Shown: positions 12,449 through 42,421 of the stretch, piece after piece
Layout: each line of letters opens with the position of its first letter
Numbering within the stretch: the first letter of the stretch is position 1
From: an uncultured Gammaproteobacteria bacterium
Lineage (GTDB): Bacteria; Patescibacteriota; Patescibacteriia; Patescibacteriales; UBA12075
Length of the DNA stretch: 55,866 nucleotides
Assembly: GCA_964459725.1 (NCBI GenBank)
Contig: CAYWNT010000008.1
Location: 3,694-59,559, forward strand
Direction: 5' to 3'
The notes under the pieces: generated by a model
What the model saw: only the letters and a program-made list of their open reading frames with translations
The model's database searches: none
Told to the model about the DNA's origin: nothing
Program-made: the position numbers and the translations under genes

Positions 12449-12472
12449 TGTTAAGGTCTCCTTATTTAATTA

Positions 12473-12510
12473 AATGTATATACATTTGTTTAAACATATG
12501 TATATACATT
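12473..12510. repeat. 38-bp palindrome (one mismatch), copy 1 of 2
   Basis: AATGTATATACATTTGTTTAAACATATGTATATACATT; 37/38 identical to 38193-38230. Confidence 0.9.
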
Positions 12511-12553
12511 AATAAAATTTCTCCCGCATAATTTTTTTTGGAAGTAAAAGAAC

Positions 12554-35720: not shown

Positions 35721-37082
35721 ATGCCAAAAAAACAAGTAAAAAAGAAAGAAGTAAAAACTGAACCAAAAACTAGAAAGCCAAAGAAGTTTTCTAGATTAAG
35801 AGGGATGAAAGATGTTCTTTTTGATGAGTATAAGTATTGGAATTTGATATTGAAAAAATCAGCCGATTTAGCCTCTGTTTATGGTTTTAATAAGATTGAT
35901 ACCCCCATCATGGAAAAGGCTGAGATATATGAAAAGTCAACCGGCAAGGATACTGATGTCGTGTCAAAGGAGATGTATTCCTTTGTAGATAAGGGTGGAG
36001 ACAGGATTGCACTACGTCCAGAGGCTACACCCGGATTGGTAAGAGCCTATATTGATCACGGGATGTTTAACCTACCTCAACCAGTAAAAACATATTGGAT
36101 GGGTAAAATTTTTCGTCATGAAAAACCACAGTCTGGTCGCCTTAGACAGCATACTCAGGTTAACTTTGATATTTTTGGCGAGGAAAGTCCGGTAGCAGAT
36201 GCTCAGTTAATCTTGATTGCTTATAACTTCTTTAGCGAATTACAGATCAATGTACAGATTGAAATAAATAGTATTGGATGTGATGAGTGTCGTCCCGGGT
36301 ATATCAAAAGTTTAATAGAGTTTTACAAAGAAAGGGGGAAGAGGTCAAAGCTTTGCAATGATTGTAAAAAAAGATTTACAAAAAATCCGTTACGTCTCTT
36401 GGATTGTAAGGAAAAGCAATGTATCGAGGTCAGAGAGTCAGCTCCGCAGTTGGTGGATTTCCTTTGCGATGATTGCCGAGATCACTTCATAAAGGTGCTG
36501 GAGTACTTAGATGAGATGTCTATTCCTTATAATCTACAGCCTTCCTTGGTTCGTGGATTAGATTATTATAACAGGACAGTATTTGAAATTATCGCAGTGG
36601 ATGATGAGGAAGAGGAGCAGGAAAAAAAGAGACAGTCGTCATTAGGTGGCGGAGGACGTTACGATAACTTGGTGGAAGACATGGGAGGAAGACCTACTCC
36701 TGTTTGTGGATTCGGACTAGGTGTTGAGAGAGTGATTCTGAAAATAAAAGAAAAAAATATACCAATAAAGAAGGACAAAGAAGATATTATTTTTATTGCC
36801 CAGCTAGGAGATCAGGCCAGAAGAAAAGCTTTTGTTCTCTTCGAGGAGATGAGAAAAAATGGGTATATTGCTAGACAGTCTTTTACTAAAAATAGCCTGA
36901 AGACCCAATTGGAAGAAGCTAATAGGATTGGAGCAAGATTCTCAATGATTCTTGGACAAAAGGAATTACTAGATGGTACTATTATTTTCAGGGATATGAT
37001 TACAGGAACGCAGGAGGTAATTGACTATAAAAAAATATATAATGAAATTGACAAGAGATTAAACTTGGAAGAAAAACTATAA
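35721..37082 (+). CDS. hisS: Histidine--tRNA ligase
   Basis: LRPEAT, FRHEKPQSGR, LVRGLDYY, GGGRYD. Confidence 0.97.
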   Translation: MPKKQVKKKEVKTEPKTRKPKKFSRLRGMKDVLFDEYKYWNLILKKSADLASVYGFNKIDTPIMEKAEIYEKSTGKDTDVVSKEMYSFVDKGGDRIALRPEATPGLVRAYIDHGMFNLPQPVKTYWMGKIFRHEKPQSGRLRQHTQVNFDIFGEESPVADAQLILIAYNFFSELQINVQIEINSIGCDECRPGYIKSLIEFYKERGKRSKLCNDCKKRFTKNPLRLLDCKEKQCIEVRESAPQLVDFLCDDCRDHFIKVLEYLDEMSIPYNLQPSLVRGLDYYNRTVFEIIAVDDEEEEQEKKRQSSLGGGGRYDNLVEDMGGRPTPVCGFGLGVERVILKIKEKNIPIKKDKEDIIFIAQLGDQARRKAFVLFEEMRKNGYIARQSFTKNSLKTQLEEANRIGARFSMILGQKELLDGTIIFRDMITGTQEVIDYKKIYNEIDKRLNLEEKL

Positions 37083-37115
37083 AAAAATATGATTTATAAT
37101 AAAATAAAACATTCT

Positions 37116-37128
37116 AGAAAGGCAGGTG
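37116..37128 (+). promoter_or_regulatory. Extended Shine-Dalgarno of rpsU
   Basis: AGAAAGG(C)AGGTG, 4 nt before the ATG. Confidence 0.65.
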
Positions 37129-37132
37129 TACT

Positions 37133-37375
37133 ATGGTAGAATTCAAAAGAAAAAAAGGCGAAAGCTTTGAAGGTTTCCTGAGAAGATTTAACAAAACATT
37201 GATCAAGAGTAGAAAGTTGAAAGAAGCAAGAAGAAGAAAATACTTGCAACCGAAAAAAAACAAAGCCAAGCAAAAAGAACAAGCATTATTAGGAATAGAG
37301 ATTAATAAAAAGAATGATTATCTAAAGAGAATTGGGAAGATCAAGGAAGACATGAGAACCAACAGAAGAAGATAG
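37133..37375 (+). CDS. rpsU: 30S ribosomal protein bS21
   Basis: ESFEGFLRRF.K motif, very basic, followed by yqeY (conserved rpsU-yqeY synteny). Confidence 0.85.
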   Translation: MVEFKRKKGESFEGFLRRFNKTLIKSRKLKEARRRKYLQPKKNKAKQKEQALLGIEINKKNDYLKRIGKIKEDMRTNRRR

Positions 37376-37402
37376 TCACTAATAAATTTAATATTTATTA
37401 AA

Positions 37403-37852
37403 ATGCAATTGTTTGAAGAAATAAACAATGATTTAAAACAGGCTATGCGAGAGAAGAAGGCATTAGATCTTTCTGTTTTGCGTATGCTAGTTTCGTCATT
37501 ACAAAATAAGAAAATATCACTAGGTAAAGATGCAGAGTTGTCAGATGAGATCGTGACTGAAGTAGTGAAAAGCGAAATCAAGAAGAGAAAGGATTCGATT
37601 CTCTCTTATCGTGATGGAGGACGAGATGACCTAGCTGAGGCAGAAGAAAAAGAAATAAGTATTATTGAGAAATACATGCCAGAGCAAATGAGCCAAGAAG
37701 AACTGGAAAAGGTGGTTAAAGAAGTGATAGATTCAATGGGCGAAGTTGGCCCAGGAGATTTTGGAAAAGTCATGGGAGCGGTCATGGGCAGAGTAAAGGG
37801 AAAGGCAGACGGCACCATGGTGAGCGGAGCAGTGAAGCAATTACTTAGTTAG
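37403..37852 (+). CDS. yqeY: GatB/YqeY domain protein
   Basis: DLKQAMR, KKRKDSI, GR.DLA..E..E, GKVMG.VM...KGKADG. Confidence 0.95.
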   Translation: MQLFEEINNDLKQAMREKKALDLSVLRMLVSSLQNKKISLGKDAELSDEIVTEVVKSEIKKRKDSILSYRDGGRDDLAEAEEKEISIIEKYMPEQMSQEELEKVVKEVIDSMGEVGPGDFGKVMGAVMGRVKGKADGTMVSGAVKQLLS

Positions 37853-37871
37853 AGTTTGACTTCTAATATAT

Positions 37872-37909
37872 AAAAAGCAGAACGGATTTCTATTCGTTCT
37901 GTTTTTTTT
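37872..37909 (+). terminator. Intrinsic terminator after yqeY
   Basis: AAAAAGCAGAACGGA / TTCGTTCTGTTTTTTTT. Confidence 0.8.
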
Positions 37910-37935
37910 GTGTGAAATAAATTATTTTTCCCACC

Positions 37936-37963
37936 TTGACATATTTTAGAAATATGTTATAGT
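37936..37963 (+). promoter_or_regulatory. Sigma70 promoter with no downstream gene
   Basis: TTGACA-16-TATAGT with extended -10 TG. Confidence 0.7.
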
Positions 37964-37968
37964 GCTAG

Positions 37969-38167
37969 TTATTGGACTGAACACATTTTTTTTCAAAATA
38001 AAAAAAGAGGGGGGAAAGAATGGTTTCTGAAGTCTGAAGCGCTGATAACCAAGCAGCGCAAACATAAACAGAGATAAAACTCTCTATTTCGTCTAGTTTA
38101 GGCGGAAACTTGGTTAGGAAAACAAAAAGGCGGTTGAGCCTAGGAATCAACCGCCTTTATTTTTTTT
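37969..38167 (+). ncRNA. Candidate ~200-nt pseudoknotted ncRNA
   Basis: Promoter upstream. Stem 38039-38044/38054-38059 has a loop TAACCAAG complementary to CTTGGTTA (38109-38116), with two hairpins in between. Strong terminator at 38126-38167. Confidence 0.55.
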
Positions 38168-38191
38168 GGATAAAGTGAAATAAAATTTTCT

Positions 38192-38231
38192 CAATGTATA
38201 TACATATGTTTAAACATATGTATATACATTG
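38192..38231. repeat. Perfect 40-bp palindrome, copy 2 of 2
   Basis: CAATGTATATACATATGTTTAAACATATGTATATACATTG. Confidence 0.92.
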
Positions 38232-38321
38232 CTTTTTGATTTATATCTTAGCACTAAAGTATAATACTGGAAGTTCTGCGGGCAGAGCAATTCTTTTTTG
38301 TGTTGGCTTAATGTTGGTAAT

Positions 38322-38350
38322 AAAAAAGCCACGAGAACAAGTCTCGTGGC
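38322..38350 (-). terminator. Intrinsic terminator of the 278-aa gene
   Basis: GCCACGAGA / TCTCGTGGC stem with a minus-strand U tract. Confidence 0.8.
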
Positions 38351-38371
38351 CTAGGTATTGAAAGTGCGTTC

Positions 38372-39208
38372 TTACAAAACACCATCTTTTTTATATAAGT
38401 GACGTAAAAAGAGGGCTTTGCGGTCCTCTGCGCCATTCTTGAAAACTTTGTCTAGATGAACAAAAACTGCATTTATCCAAACACTTGTTTGAATGAAATC
38501 TTTTTCCATTTTTGAGTCAGGTTTTCCAAATACGGTTATTAAGTCTTCATCATATTCGGTGCGATTAGGGATAGTAAAATTTCCCACTGATCTTTTTGCT
38601 TCGTCGTTTATACGCTTTACCTCTTTGTCAAGCACAAATTGATATTTCGCACCACCGATAAGAGCCATGACCCTGTTTTGGAATGTGTGAGCTTTGACTT
38701 CTTCATAACAATACTCTTTATCACTTTGCTTTTCATAAGGATTCTTGATAAAAGTATAAGCGTGATACCCCTCATGAAGAAAAACTATTGCCTTTCCTGT
38801 TGGGTTGTATAGTGAGTCCTTTAGCACAACTGCCTTAATTTTATTAAGAAAATGTGCCGCAGCAGGTGAAGAAAAGATATATCTCCAGTGTTCATTTGCT
38901 TCTTTGTCTTTTTCTAGTAAGGGCATGATTGCCAACCAATCCTCTGATTGTGCTCTCTCTAAAAATTTCATTCCCTTTTCATTGGGTACGGCTAGAATGA
39001 GATTCTTCTCCAAGAATTGAAAAATCTCTATAGCTTCCCTGTCGTTAATTTTTTCCACTACTTGTTTTGTGCTTTTCAGCCACTCTTCTTTAATTCTTCC
39101 TCTTTCCACAGTATCATTTTTGTCTTTATCTGCACAGCCTAGTACGACCATGACAAAAAATAGTGAAATAAAGGAAAAAATAAAACGGACGGAGTTAATT
39201 TTTAACAT
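38372..39208 (-). CDS. Putative lipoprotein with zincin-type HExxH motif
   Basis: GAGGAGG SD; hydrophobic leader ending VLGC; FLHEGYHAY and downstream EEVKA. Confidence 0.65.
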   Translation of the reverse strand: MLKINSVRFIFSFISLFFVMVVLGCADKDKNDTVERGRIKEEWLKSTKQVVEKINDREAIEIFQFLEKNLILAVPNEKGMKFLERAQSEDWLAIMPLLEKDKEANEHWRYIFSSPAAAHFLNKIKAVVLKDSLYNPTGKAIVFLHEGYHAYTFIKNPYEKQSDKEYCYEEVKAHTFQNRVMALIGGAKYQFVLDKEVKRINDEAKRSVGNFTIPNRTEYDEDLITVFGKPDSKMEKDFIQTSVWINAVFVHLDKVFKNGAEDRKALFLRHLYKKDGVL

Positions 39209-39364
39209 ATTTAACCTCCTCTAATTTTTCACGAATCTTTATTAACCAAAATTTGTTTGTGATGTTTGTTCATCCCCCCCCTTTTTTTTTATTCTTATTT
39301 CATATCTGATTAAGATTTAAAGTGCAATATTTTATCCTAAATTACATTAACTTAGTATCAAAAG

Positions 39365-39393
39365 AGCATAGCATAAATGCTATACTTTGTCAA
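39365..39393 (-). promoter_or_regulatory. Sigma70 promoter of the lipoprotein gene with an overlapping palindrome
   Basis: TTGACA-17-TATGCT; ATAGCATTTATGCTAT overlaps the spacer and -10. Confidence 0.6.
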
Positions 39394-39498
39394 TAGCGAT
39401 AATTTTATATCTCATATTTTATTTTTAGAAATAACCTTATTCAACTTAACTTTTGTGGTAAAACTTGGTAGTTTTGCAGACAGACCAACTCATTCATT

Positions 39499-39529
39499 AA
39501 AAAACCACCAGCCTAGAGCTGGTGGTTTT
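39499..39529 (-). terminator. uvrA terminator
   Basis: AAAACCACCAGC / GCTGGTGGTTTT. Confidence 0.85.
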
Positions 39530-39544
39530 AATATTTAATAATTT

Positions 39545-42421
39545 TTATTTTACAACTTTCTTCAAAAATTTACCCGTATGACTGTTTTTCGCTTCTGCCA
39601 CTTGTCTTGGGGTGCCTTGGGCTACGATTTGGCCGCCTTTGTCTCCGCCTTCCGGTCCCATGTCGATGATCCAGTCTACTGATTTTATGACATCCATGTT
39701 GTGTTCGATGATTAGGACGGTGTTTCCTTTGTCGACGAGTTTGTTGAGTACTCCAAGTAGACGCTCTATGTCCTCGAAATGAAGGCCAGTTGTTGGTTCG
39801 TCTAGAATGTATAATGTTTTACCGGTTGATCTTCGAGCAAGTTCGGTTGATAGTTTTACTCTCTGTGCTTCTCCGCCGGATAGGGTGGTGGCTGATTGAC
39901 CCAGCTTGATATATCCCAAGCCTACCTCATTTAGAGTGACTAACTTGGTGTGAATTGCTGGAATATTCTTGAAAAAGGTCGAAGCTTCTTCTACAGTCAT
40001 ATCTAAAACATCTGAAATGTTCTTGCCCTTGTATTCAATATCCAGTGCTTCTTTATTGTATCTTTTACCATGACAAACATCGCACTCTACATAAACATCA
40101 GGCAAAAATTGCATCTCAATCTTGACCATGCCGTCACCAGAACAAGCCTCACATCGTCCACCAACAACGTTGAATGAAAATCGTCCTGCCTTGTATCCCT
40201 TTATTTTAGCTTCTGGAAGGCTGGCAAAGAGCTCTCTAATAGGAGTGAAGGCTCCGGTGTAGGTTGCCGGATTTGATCGTGGAGTTCTCCCAATCGGAGA
40301 CTGATCGATATTAATAACTTTGTTTATGAATTGTAGGCCCTCAATTTTTTTGTGAGCTCCTGGTTCTGTTTTAGCTCTATAAAATTTCTTGTTCAGGGAC
40401 TTAGCCAGAATATCTGTCATGAGTGTGGACTTACCAGATCCTGACACACCGGTGATAGCGATGAATTTTCCTAGCGGGAATTCTACATCGATATTTTTTA
40501 AGTTATGTTCCTCTGCTCCAATAATTTTAATTGCCGCATTGTTTCCTGGGCGGTACTTGGTTGGAGTAGGGATGCTTTTTTGTCCGGATAAGTACTGACC
40601 AGTTGTTGAAGTTTTGGACTTCATTATTTCTTTTGGAGTGCCCTCTGCTATGATTTCCCCTCCGTGCTCACCAGCACCAGGACCAACGTCGATTATCCAA
40701 TCAGCGGTCATCATGGTATCTTCGTCATGCTCTACCACTATGACTGTATTTCCAATATCTTTTAAATTCTTAATAGTTTTTATTAACTTGTGATTGTCTC
40801 TTTGGTGTAGACCAATAGATGGCTCATCCAAGATGTAGAGAACACCAACAAGTCTAGTGCCGATTTGGTTGGCTAGTCTAATTCTTTGCGCTTCGCCACC
40901 AGATAGAGTATTGGCTGCTCTGTCTAAAGTTAAATAATCAAGTCCAACATTCAAGAGAAAGTCTAATCTGGAAATTACTTCTTTTATAATTTGTGTTGAT
41001 ATTTTCCTATCTTTAGCGGAAATATTTTTTGACTTGGCAAAATCAGAAAAGAATTTTTTAGCATCATTAATAGGCTTTTTTGTAACATCCGAAATAGAAT
41101 GATCAAGAACTTTAACACCTAAAATTTCCTTTTTTAATCTCTGACCATCACACTCAGGGCACCTCAAAACTCTCATGTATTGTTCTATTTCTTTTCTTAC
41201 ATAATCTGACTCAGTTTGCTGATATCTCCTTTCCAGGTTAGGAACTACACCTTCAAAGTTAGTAGCTAGCTCTCCTGAAAATCTCTGGCTTTCGTATTCT
41301 ACGTCATAGTTTTTATCTCCGGTTCCATAAAGCAAGATCTCCATTTGCTTGTCTGTGAGATCCTTGATTGCAGTGTTTAGATCAAATCCGTGCTTCTCGG
41401 CAACAGTTCCTAAGATGCGCATCATCCAGGTCTGACTACCGGCAGTATTATGAGACCAGGGTTTTACCCCGCCTTGAGCGATAGTTAGGTTTGGATTCAG
41501 TATTAGTTTGGTATCGATTTCCAGCTTAGTACCAAGACCGGAACATTCAGGACAGGCGCCATGAGGAGAGTTGAATGAAAAGTTACGAGGTTCTAGTTCG
41601 TTGAGGCTAATGTCGCAGGTCGGGCAAGCATAAAGCTCTGAGTAAGTCTTTATTTCATTTTTTTTCTTTAAGTCGAGTATATACACTAGTCCTTCTCCGA
41701 ATTTCAGGGCTTGTTCTATTGATTCTGAAGTTCTGGCTATATCATCTTTATTCTTGGTTACAGTTATTCTATCAATAACAATTTCCATGTTATGTTTCTT
41801 TTTTTTGTCAATTTCCATGTCTTCAATTTCTTCAATCGTATATATACTTCCATCAAATCTAACCCGAGAATAACCAGCTCTTTCGATATTTTCTAAAAGG
41901 TTTTTATGCTCTCCTTTTTTGTCTTTGACAATTGGAGCGAGTATTAGAATTTCTTTATTTAGATAATCTTTTAATATGCGAGTATTTATTTCATCGATTG
42001 AGTATTGTTCGATTTTTTTACCACAAACAGGACAATGCGGTATGCCAATGCGAGCGAAGAGAAGTCTGATGTAGTCATATATCTCAGTTACGGTTCCAAC
42101 GGTTGAGCGTGGATTATGCGGGGCAGTTTTTTGATCTATAGAAATAGCCGGAGATAGTCCTTCGATTGAGTCAATGTCAGGTTTATCCATGAGCCCGATG
42201 AACTGTCTAGCATAAGCTGAGAGAGACTCTACATACCTTCTTTGTCCTTCAGCGTACACCGTATCAAAGGCGAGTGATGATTTTCCTGATCCAGAAAGGC
42301 CAGTTATAACCACAAATTTATCTCTAGGAATATCGATATCTATATTTTTCAAATTGTTAACCTTAGCTCCCTTAATTTGAATTGAATTAGAATCGATAGT
42401 TTTTTTGATCTTTTTTGGCAT
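39545..42421 (-). CDS. uvrA: Excinuclease ABC subunit A
   Basis: Two ABC modules ([24 protein letters not shown] twice) and zinc fingers. Confidence 0.98.

Follow-up and report, generated by a model that had tools for sequence, protein, structure and literature searches.

The 55,866-nt stretch of DNA analysed here (the window) contains, downstream of yqeY, a unit of approximately 195 nt which, judged from its sequence, is most likely a genuine transcription unit, small and confined to its lineage, and which is placed here, as an unverified candidate, among the ordinary intergenic sRNA genes. The tentatively preferred reading is that of a lineage-specific sRNA gene which would be independently transcribed and would act through open loops, and to which we assign a probability of roughly 0.45. 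An earlier note on this DNA had described the same elements and had proposed a novel structured RNA with a pseudoknot, possibly ribosome-engaging or catalytic; the elements were recovered almost entirely as described, while the proposed pseudoknot and its roles found no corroboration. The features of the unit and of its surroundings are as follows:

37403-37852, + strand: yqeY (Pfam YqeY, E 9e-48)
37878-37908, + strand: terminator of yqeY (sequence reading and terminator scan)
37936-37963, + strand: promoter P1, with TTGACA at 37936-37941, a 16-nt spacer with a TGn extended -10, and TATAGT at 37958-37963
37970-37972, + strand: predicted transcription start, from promoter geometry (7-9 nt after the -10)
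37972-38037, + strand: A/U-rich 5' hairpin, predicted by MFE and centroid fold, in which parts of the SD, AUG and mini-ORF are paired to the 5' end
38007-38014, + strand: SD-like GAGGGGGG in a purine tract, 5 nt before the ATG
38020-38037, + strand: mini-ORF ATG GTT TCT GAA GTC TGA (MVSEV*), from sequence reading
38039-38059, + strand: stem 1, 6 bp, with a 9-nt loop holding TAACCAAG (38046-38053); pair probabilities 0.98
38070-38085, + strand: hairpin 2, 5 bp, 6-nt loop; pair probabilities 0.82-0.92
38087-38107, + strand: hairpin 3, 9 bp including 2 G-U, 3-nt loop; pair probabilities 0.69-1.0
38109-38116, + strand: CTTGGTTA, perfectly complementary to 8 nt of the stem-1 loop, which may form an H-type pseudoknot or a helix in place of stem 1
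38126-38167, + strand: intrinsic terminator, 12-bp stem (38126-38158, 6 G-C pairs, 9-nt loop) and T8 (38160-38167)
38352-38326, - strand: terminator belonging to the 278-aa gene
38372-39208, - strand: 278-aa orphan ORF, convergent to yqeY
39545-42421, - strand: next gene beyond the 278-aa ORF
Overlapping the unit, - strand: ORFs of 39 aa and 61 aa, without support

The near-consensus promoter of the earlier note (TTGACA/TATAGT) matches 11/12 consensus positions and additionally carries TGn, and it is the top-scoring of 11 promoter-like sites in 37000-39500, a region for which shuffles predict 7.5 +/- 2.2 such sites. The strong terminator said to close the unit was found both by scan and by folding: a standard scan misses it (loop limit 8), while our own scan and the fold reveal the 12-bp stem and its T8. 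It begins 162 nt after the -10 and is bidirectional on account of an A-run upstream of the stem. No + strand ORF of at least 30 aa occurs within the unit, in agreement with the statement that these two elements enclose nothing longer than a few codons. Likewise, the purine-rich SD-like tract, the mini-ORF MVSEV with its TGA at 38035-38037, the stem GCGCTG/CAGCGC with its 9-nt loop and the perfect 8-nt pairing between that loop and the distal segment were all recovered. Of the two hairpins placed between the pairing partners, that at 38087-38107 was confirmed, and that given as 38070-38083 is present but truly ends at 38085. G-rich SD 5-mers also precede long ORFs of this genome; since an SD and ATG followed by an ORF of fewer than 10 codons occur in approximately 50 cases in the intergenic DNA of the genome, the mini-ORF alone is not significant.

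The unit lies in a spacer of 519 nt between yqeY and the convergent orphan ORF, and both genes downstream of it are encoded on the - strand, so that none follows on its own strand. Its location had been given as just downstream of rpsU-yqeY, of which the yqeY assignment is secure (Pfam E 9e-48), whereas that of rpsU is weak (S21-like, 18.3 bits against a Pfam cut-off of 27). The 278-aa ORF has a lipoprotein-like N-terminus (…VVLGCADK…), belongs to no Pfam family and has no relatives in genome contigs, constituting an orphan gene that adjoins an orphan RNA unit. The source genome (G000) measures 1.70 Mb with 36% G+C and is 92% complete. DNA contigs covering 37400-38900 are identical in 2 DNA runs of one study, while the single RNA run of that study gives zero cover in 30/30 bins of this region, yqeY included; the organism is not seen in that run, and the zero cover speaks neither for nor against a transcript.

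To which class P1 belongs was assessed across the genome, where sites matching at least 11/12 positions number 190 compared to 92-113 in local shuffles. One hundred and thirty-three of the 190 are intergenic, although the intergenic share of the genome amounts to only 19% (as derived from crude ORF calls). TGn is carried by 62/190 sites, of which approximately 12 would be expected by chance, and 55 of these 62 (89%), P1 among them, are intergenic. A same-strand ORF of at least 100 aa is faced by 109 of the 133 intergenic sites, and an opposite-strand gene by 20. Of 14 such opposite-facing units that were inspected, one leads into the 16S rRNA gene, seven into SD-led ORFs of 40-74 aa and one into an ORF of 14 aa, and a few, the present one among them, have no ORF; for most of these apparent 'orphan' units the product is 16S rRNA, a small protein or a conserved RNA. 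The promoter class TTGACA..TGnTATAAT is clearly functional in this Patescibacteria genome. Since P1 falls within this functional class and is followed by a terminator, a discrete transcript of approximately 195 nt is likely.

In the form TTGACA-N14/16-TGnTATAAT, the class also offers a practical handle for small genes and RNAs in this lineage. Two further orphan units of the same class were encountered, namely a unit of approximately 150 nt without an ORF (G000:C18:5505-5330, - strand), for which Rfam gives nothing, and one with an SD-led 14-aa ORF (MEDLLDMLFGGTKK) and a terminator (G000:C10:67791-67990, + strand), for which Rfam gives only a terminator-type sub-threshold match.

Folding of 37970-38167 (198 nt) yielded a predicted structure of -56.8 kcal/mol (z = -4.59), with 0/200 shuffles as good. 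When the terminator was omitted the z-score was -3.0 (4/500 shuffles), and the core at 38038-38120 alone gave -2.75 (3/500 shuffles), while the 5' hairpin (-14.3 kcal/mol, z = -2.1, equalled by 15/500 shuffles) is weak. The core at 38038-38157 has a G+C content of 43% compared to an intergenic median of 28%, a level that approximately one in ten intergenic windows of 120 nt attains. The terminator behaves as a constitutive one, being retained in the MFE structure under 5/5 masks, which simulated a ribosome at the start or stop codon, single blocked arms, or the state before the 3' arm is made. The duplex between CTTGGTTA and TAACCAAG has a calculated energy of -8.2 kcal/mol, and a fold in which this long-range helix replaces stem 1 reaches -54.2 rather than -56.8 kcal/mol, i.e. 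at a cost of 2.6 kcal/mol; in the model, this helix and stem 1 could possibly also form together, giving an H-type knot. A perfect pairing of at least 8 nt between a loop and a distal segment arose in 48/1000 dinucleotide shuffles (4.8%), and by itself the pairing is only marginally unusual. The pairing on which the pseudoknot of the earlier note depends lies within the reach of chance, and comparative support for the pseudoknot is nil as no homologue was found.

In the preferred sRNA reading, a sigma-70-type promoter with an extended -10 would start an RNA near 37971, and the intrinsic terminator would end it near 38163-38167, giving the transcript of approximately 195 nt. In its 5' third, an A/U-rich hairpin is predicted to partly hide the strong SD and the 5-codon mini-ORF, while the remainder would hold three short, G+C-richer hairpins. 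Contacts would probably be made through the stretches left open, namely the TAACCAAG loop, the linker (38060-38069) and the tail (38108-38125), and the most likely mode of action would be that of a base-pairing regulatory sRNA. The SD and mini-ORF would be either a vestige or, at most, a place where ribosomes land and thereby stabilise the RNA.

The unit resembles intergenic sRNA genes in having its own near-consensus promoter and intrinsic terminator, a predicted length of approximately 195 nt (within the 50-300 nt class), a number of hairpins whose loops are open, and its placement between two convergent genes. It differs from them in being known from sequence alone, in being unconserved, in its lack of a target or chaperone context, and in its strong SD and 5-codon ORF, features missing from most sRNAs. 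Against this reading also stand the absence of homologues from every search described below, the commonness of an SD and ATG with a very short ORF in intergenic DNA, the 4.8% of shuffles that reach the 8-nt pairing, and the bidirectional nature of the terminator, which could serve only as a stop between the convergent genes.

With respect to the SD-like tract, the STAB-SD stabilisers (Agaisse and Lereclus, 1996) are reportedly 5' SD-like purine tracts which stabilise a transcript, and which could bind the 30S subunit without productive translation. The unit is similar in that its purine tract lies in the 5' part of the predicted transcript, and differs in that this tract is partly paired in the predicted fold. 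Few-codon ORFs behind an SD are also known as minigenes, those of lambda bar being an example. A good SD followed by an ORF of a few codons is likewise a feature of mg2 of axe-txe as described in PMC8708949, where minigene translation is reported to be capable of shielding an RNA in cis against nucleases. Known minigenes exert their effect on a cistron further along their own mRNA, whereas no such cistron follows here.

The earlier note could not match the unit to tmRNA, SRP RNA, RNase P RNA or 6S RNA, and the comparisons made here bear this out. Rfam 15 gives 0 matches at the gathering score across the whole window, and the best + strand sub-threshold matches at the locus are U12 (22 bits, cut-off 53), L20_leader (21.1, cut-off 58.7) and ctRNA_pT181 (19.9, cut-off 56). 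The unit is not a tmRNA, an RNA with a tRNA-like domain and a tag reading frame, as ARAGORN finds none in the window and the tmRNA of the genome is located on a different contig, at G000:C7:24625-25012 (138.6 bits). Nor do SRP RNA, 6S RNA or RNase P RNA models match 37850-38400, even at E values up to 10. RNase P RNA measures approximately 350 nt with conserved catalytic-core helices; it was rejected as a candidate given the lack of a gathering-score match in the window and the length of the unit, which is only ~195 nt. 6S RNA forms an extended rod, paired at its ends and opened by a bubble in the middle; RF00013 matches neither the locus nor G000, and the predicted fold consists of four separate hairpins rather than a rod. 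A protein sponge of the CsrB/RsmZ type was also rejected, CsrA (PF02599) not being found in G000 at 92% completeness.

The domain IV hairpin of SRP RNA carries a conserved apical tetraloop and internal loops. RF00169 and RF01854 are silent on the locus and find nothing anywhere in G000, and SRP RNA was set aside as a candidate with the proviso that SRP RNAs of this lineage may escape these models or the first-look filter. RF00169 finds nothing in 31 genomes (G000 and 30 relatives), yet it has matches in 12-13 of 14 control genomes, and its silence looks like a blind spot for the lineage, not like a clue to the nature of this locus. The SRP and 6S RNAs of this order are either very divergent or missed by the first-look filter. 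The unit is outside every known family, although the lack of a match alone does not make it a new kind of RNA.

Protein-coding alternatives were assessed on both strands. The two - strand ORFs (61 aa and 39 aa), considered as a small protein or a type I toxin-antitoxin component, lack an SD, and the start of the 61-aa ORF lies inside the terminator stem; in 200 genomes the best match to this ORF has an E value of 0.002 per genome, corresponding to chance level. Coding explanations fail because there is no + strand ORF, because the frame obtained by read-through of the mini-ORF has no relatives in 200 genomes, because no + strand frame has a paralogue in its own genome, and because the 61-aa - strand ORF has no relatives in 200 genomes.

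No relative of the unit was identified. BLASTN of 37920-38180 against 60 relatives returned only promoter and A/T-run pieces of 17-48 nt, no second copy is present in its own genome, and the exact 14-mers shared with the rest of the genome are estimated to be about the number expected by chance. Homologues downstream of yqeY in relatives had been suggested as a source of comparative evidence. YqeY was found in 28/40 relatives, the best match (66% identity) being that of the nearest genome, which belongs to a different genus; 26 of the loci offered 300 nt or more of downstream sequence, and no comparable unit occurs at any of them, while at 14 a convergent long ORF directly follows yqeY. No closer relative could be reached via YqeY, either in metagenome contigs (best 61%) or in GTDB genome contigs (best 60%, Patescibacteria/Falkowbacteria-type MAGs). 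A covariance model (R1) built from 38005-38126 scored no better than E 0.02 per genome across 150 members of the order and E 0.16 across 24 members of the family, both at chance level. Furthermore, the exact stem-loop pattern occurs 0 times in viral contigs, and BLASTN against phages gave no match.

The sensitivity of these searches can be gauged from a second RNA of the same genome, which lies outside the window at G000:C1:6779-6924 (+ strand). This control RNA, another orphan unit of the P1 promoter class, is rod-shaped, measures approximately 130 nt and has a T-run as well as a TGn promoter of its own; plain BLASTN matches it in 36/40 relatives at 70-79% identity (e.g. L235:80-225 and L244:1501-1646). 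It folds as a rod with z = -8.7, 18 of its 44 predicted pairs show compensatory changes among 11 sequences, and two blocks in it, one of 19 nt and one of 13 nt, are invariant. It usually has a gene that begins MKQVADFHIHSKYSR on one side and a convergent gene of approximately 480 aa on the other. A model of it (R2) detects it in 6/6 same-class genomes and in 1 genome of another class in a 150-genome sample of the phylum, and Rfam matches it neither in G000 nor in 6 relatives. As an SRP RNA it looks unlikely, given that its apical loop varies. It is a class-wide conserved RNA that is absent from Rfam.

Since the control RNA was found by BLASTN in 36/40 relatives, a broadly conserved RNA at the candidate locus would have been detected, and the candidate unit is not such an RNA. 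This contrast with a true structured RNA of the same genome counts against the sRNA reading, as does the absence of homologues in 60 relatives by BLASTN, in 150 and 24 genomes by R1 and at 26 yqeY loci. Conversely, genus-level regulatory sRNAs are rarely alignable at such distances, and an sRNA of that kind may be compatible with the absence of homologues.

A possible, though unlikely, alternative is that the locus represents a young or decaying small-ORF unit, whose RNA is made but has no function at the RNA level; the ORF would have been cut short at codon 6, or the transcript would never have gained one. The genome is full of units consisting of a promoter, an SD, a small ORF and a terminator that encode orphan proteins of 40-75 aa: 7/14 inspected orphan units carry SD-led ORFs of 40-74 aa and one (C10:67791) an ORF of 14 aa, and the present unit shares with them its promoter type, a leader of approximately 50 nt, a strong SD and an ATG. 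The neighbouring 278-aa ORF is itself an orphan, with neither a Pfam family nor a relative. Restoration of such an ORF is nonetheless difficult to envisage, as frame 1 requires the removal of two stops and then crosses the terminator, while frame 2 lacks an ATG, GTG or TTG start, and the read-through frame is as devoid of paralogues in its own genome as it is of relatives elsewhere. In addition, the approximately 90 nt from the stop to the terminator hold three stable hairpins and a raised G+C content, whereas the 3' ends of the small-protein units looked shorter by eye.

It is rather improbable that the arrangement arose by chance, with a silent or weak promoter, functionless hairpins and a bidirectional terminator that merely separates the convergent yqeY and 278-aa genes. 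Approximately 100 sites of at least 11/12 arise in shuffled genomes, the terminator, with its upstream A-run, works on paper for the - strand too, and both the want of a homologue and the 48/1000 shuffles that reach the 8-nt pairing are in keeping with such an origin. TGn-bearing sites such as P1 are, however, 89% intergenic (55/62), the fold z-scores range from -2.75 to -4.6, and yqeY and the 278-aa gene each possess their own terminator, so that a third needs another reason.

The reading favoured by the earlier note, in which an H-type pseudoknot behind the stop of the mini-ORF engages the ribosome (read-through or stalling) or is catalytic, is highly improbable. The knot is sterically possible, with a 6-bp stem 1, a 1-nt loop 1, a stackable second stem of 7-8 bp and a long loop 3 containing two hairpins, and the SD is strong and well spaced. 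The order of a stop codon and then a stem whose loop can pair downstream is also that of recoding H-type pseudoknots. Known read-through and frameshift knots, however, sit 5-8 nt downstream of the recoding site. Here stem 1 begins only 1 nt after the TGA, a spacing that misfits known recoding signals, and a ribosome with the TGA in its A site would, by established footprint geometry and the masked fold, have opened it beforehand. Read-through would add only 9 codons, in a frame without relatives in the 200 genomes, there is no extended ORF, and the second helix is without covariation support and its pairing is reached by 4.8% of shuffles. As regards catalysis, no ribozyme family was matched and no homologue was found.

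A translation-gated riboregulator, for which the chances appear slim, would employ the same parts differently: a ribosome terminating on the mini-ORF would melt stem 1 and thereby switch 38046-38053 between 38109-38116 and a target. If true, such a switch would constitute a species-specific RNA of approximately 195 nt from a CPR bacterium, with a mini-ORF abutting an H-type pseudoknot. The faintest prospect is that of a remnant of a leader-peptide attenuator of the trp/leu type whose regulated gene has been lost, which would fit the order of promoter, micro-ORF, hairpins and terminator, but which is contradicted by the lack of an antiterminator (no alternative fold removes the terminator, which persists under all five masks), by the position of the next genes on the - strand with no same-strand gene following, by a 5-codon ORF (MVSEV) with no codon bias or single-amino-acid run, and by the absence of sequence similarity elsewhere in the genome.

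Downstream of the unit, 38192-38231 forms a perfect 40-bp palindrome composed of three tandem 12-bp ATGT-N4-ACAT boxes. This is a dispersed repeat, with 5 copies in the assembly within 3 mismatches (38192-38231 and 12472-12511 of the window, G000:C7:46012-46051, C12:2515-2554 and C12:36164-36203) and flanks that share no similarity; reading of the flanks places three copies just upstream of gene starts and two between convergent genes. Logan contigs break at the palindrome, where the depth is approximately 154 compared to 10. The element could be a regulon operator or a REP-like element. On the - strand, the palindrome at 38192-38231 together with the terminator of the unit gives a hairpin-plus-terminator match to the trpB motif (RF04312), the highest-scoring sub-threshold match of the area. 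It was rejected since its 43.5 bits do not reach the gathering score (59), since it is opposite in strand to the unit and outside a 5' UTR, and since it corresponds to a generic hairpin and terminator; the account of this motif in PMC11109978 places it in Firmicutes and Fusobacteria. Directly after the palindrome, a second promoter-like site (38236-38288, + strand; TTGATT-18-TATAAT, 10/12) is accompanied by a 6-bp hairpin and T-run within approximately 10 nt of its expected start, and a transcript from it would enter the 278-aa gene in antisense orientation.

Returning to the sRNA reading, few or no small RNAs have been described for the Patescibacteria (CPR), no paper on ncRNAs of this group being among the matches listed. 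On present evidence a single unconserved locus teaches little, and the promoter-class handle and the control RNA may matter more than the locus itself. If transcribed, the unit would nevertheless rank among the first regulatory sRNA candidates from genomes of this reduced type.
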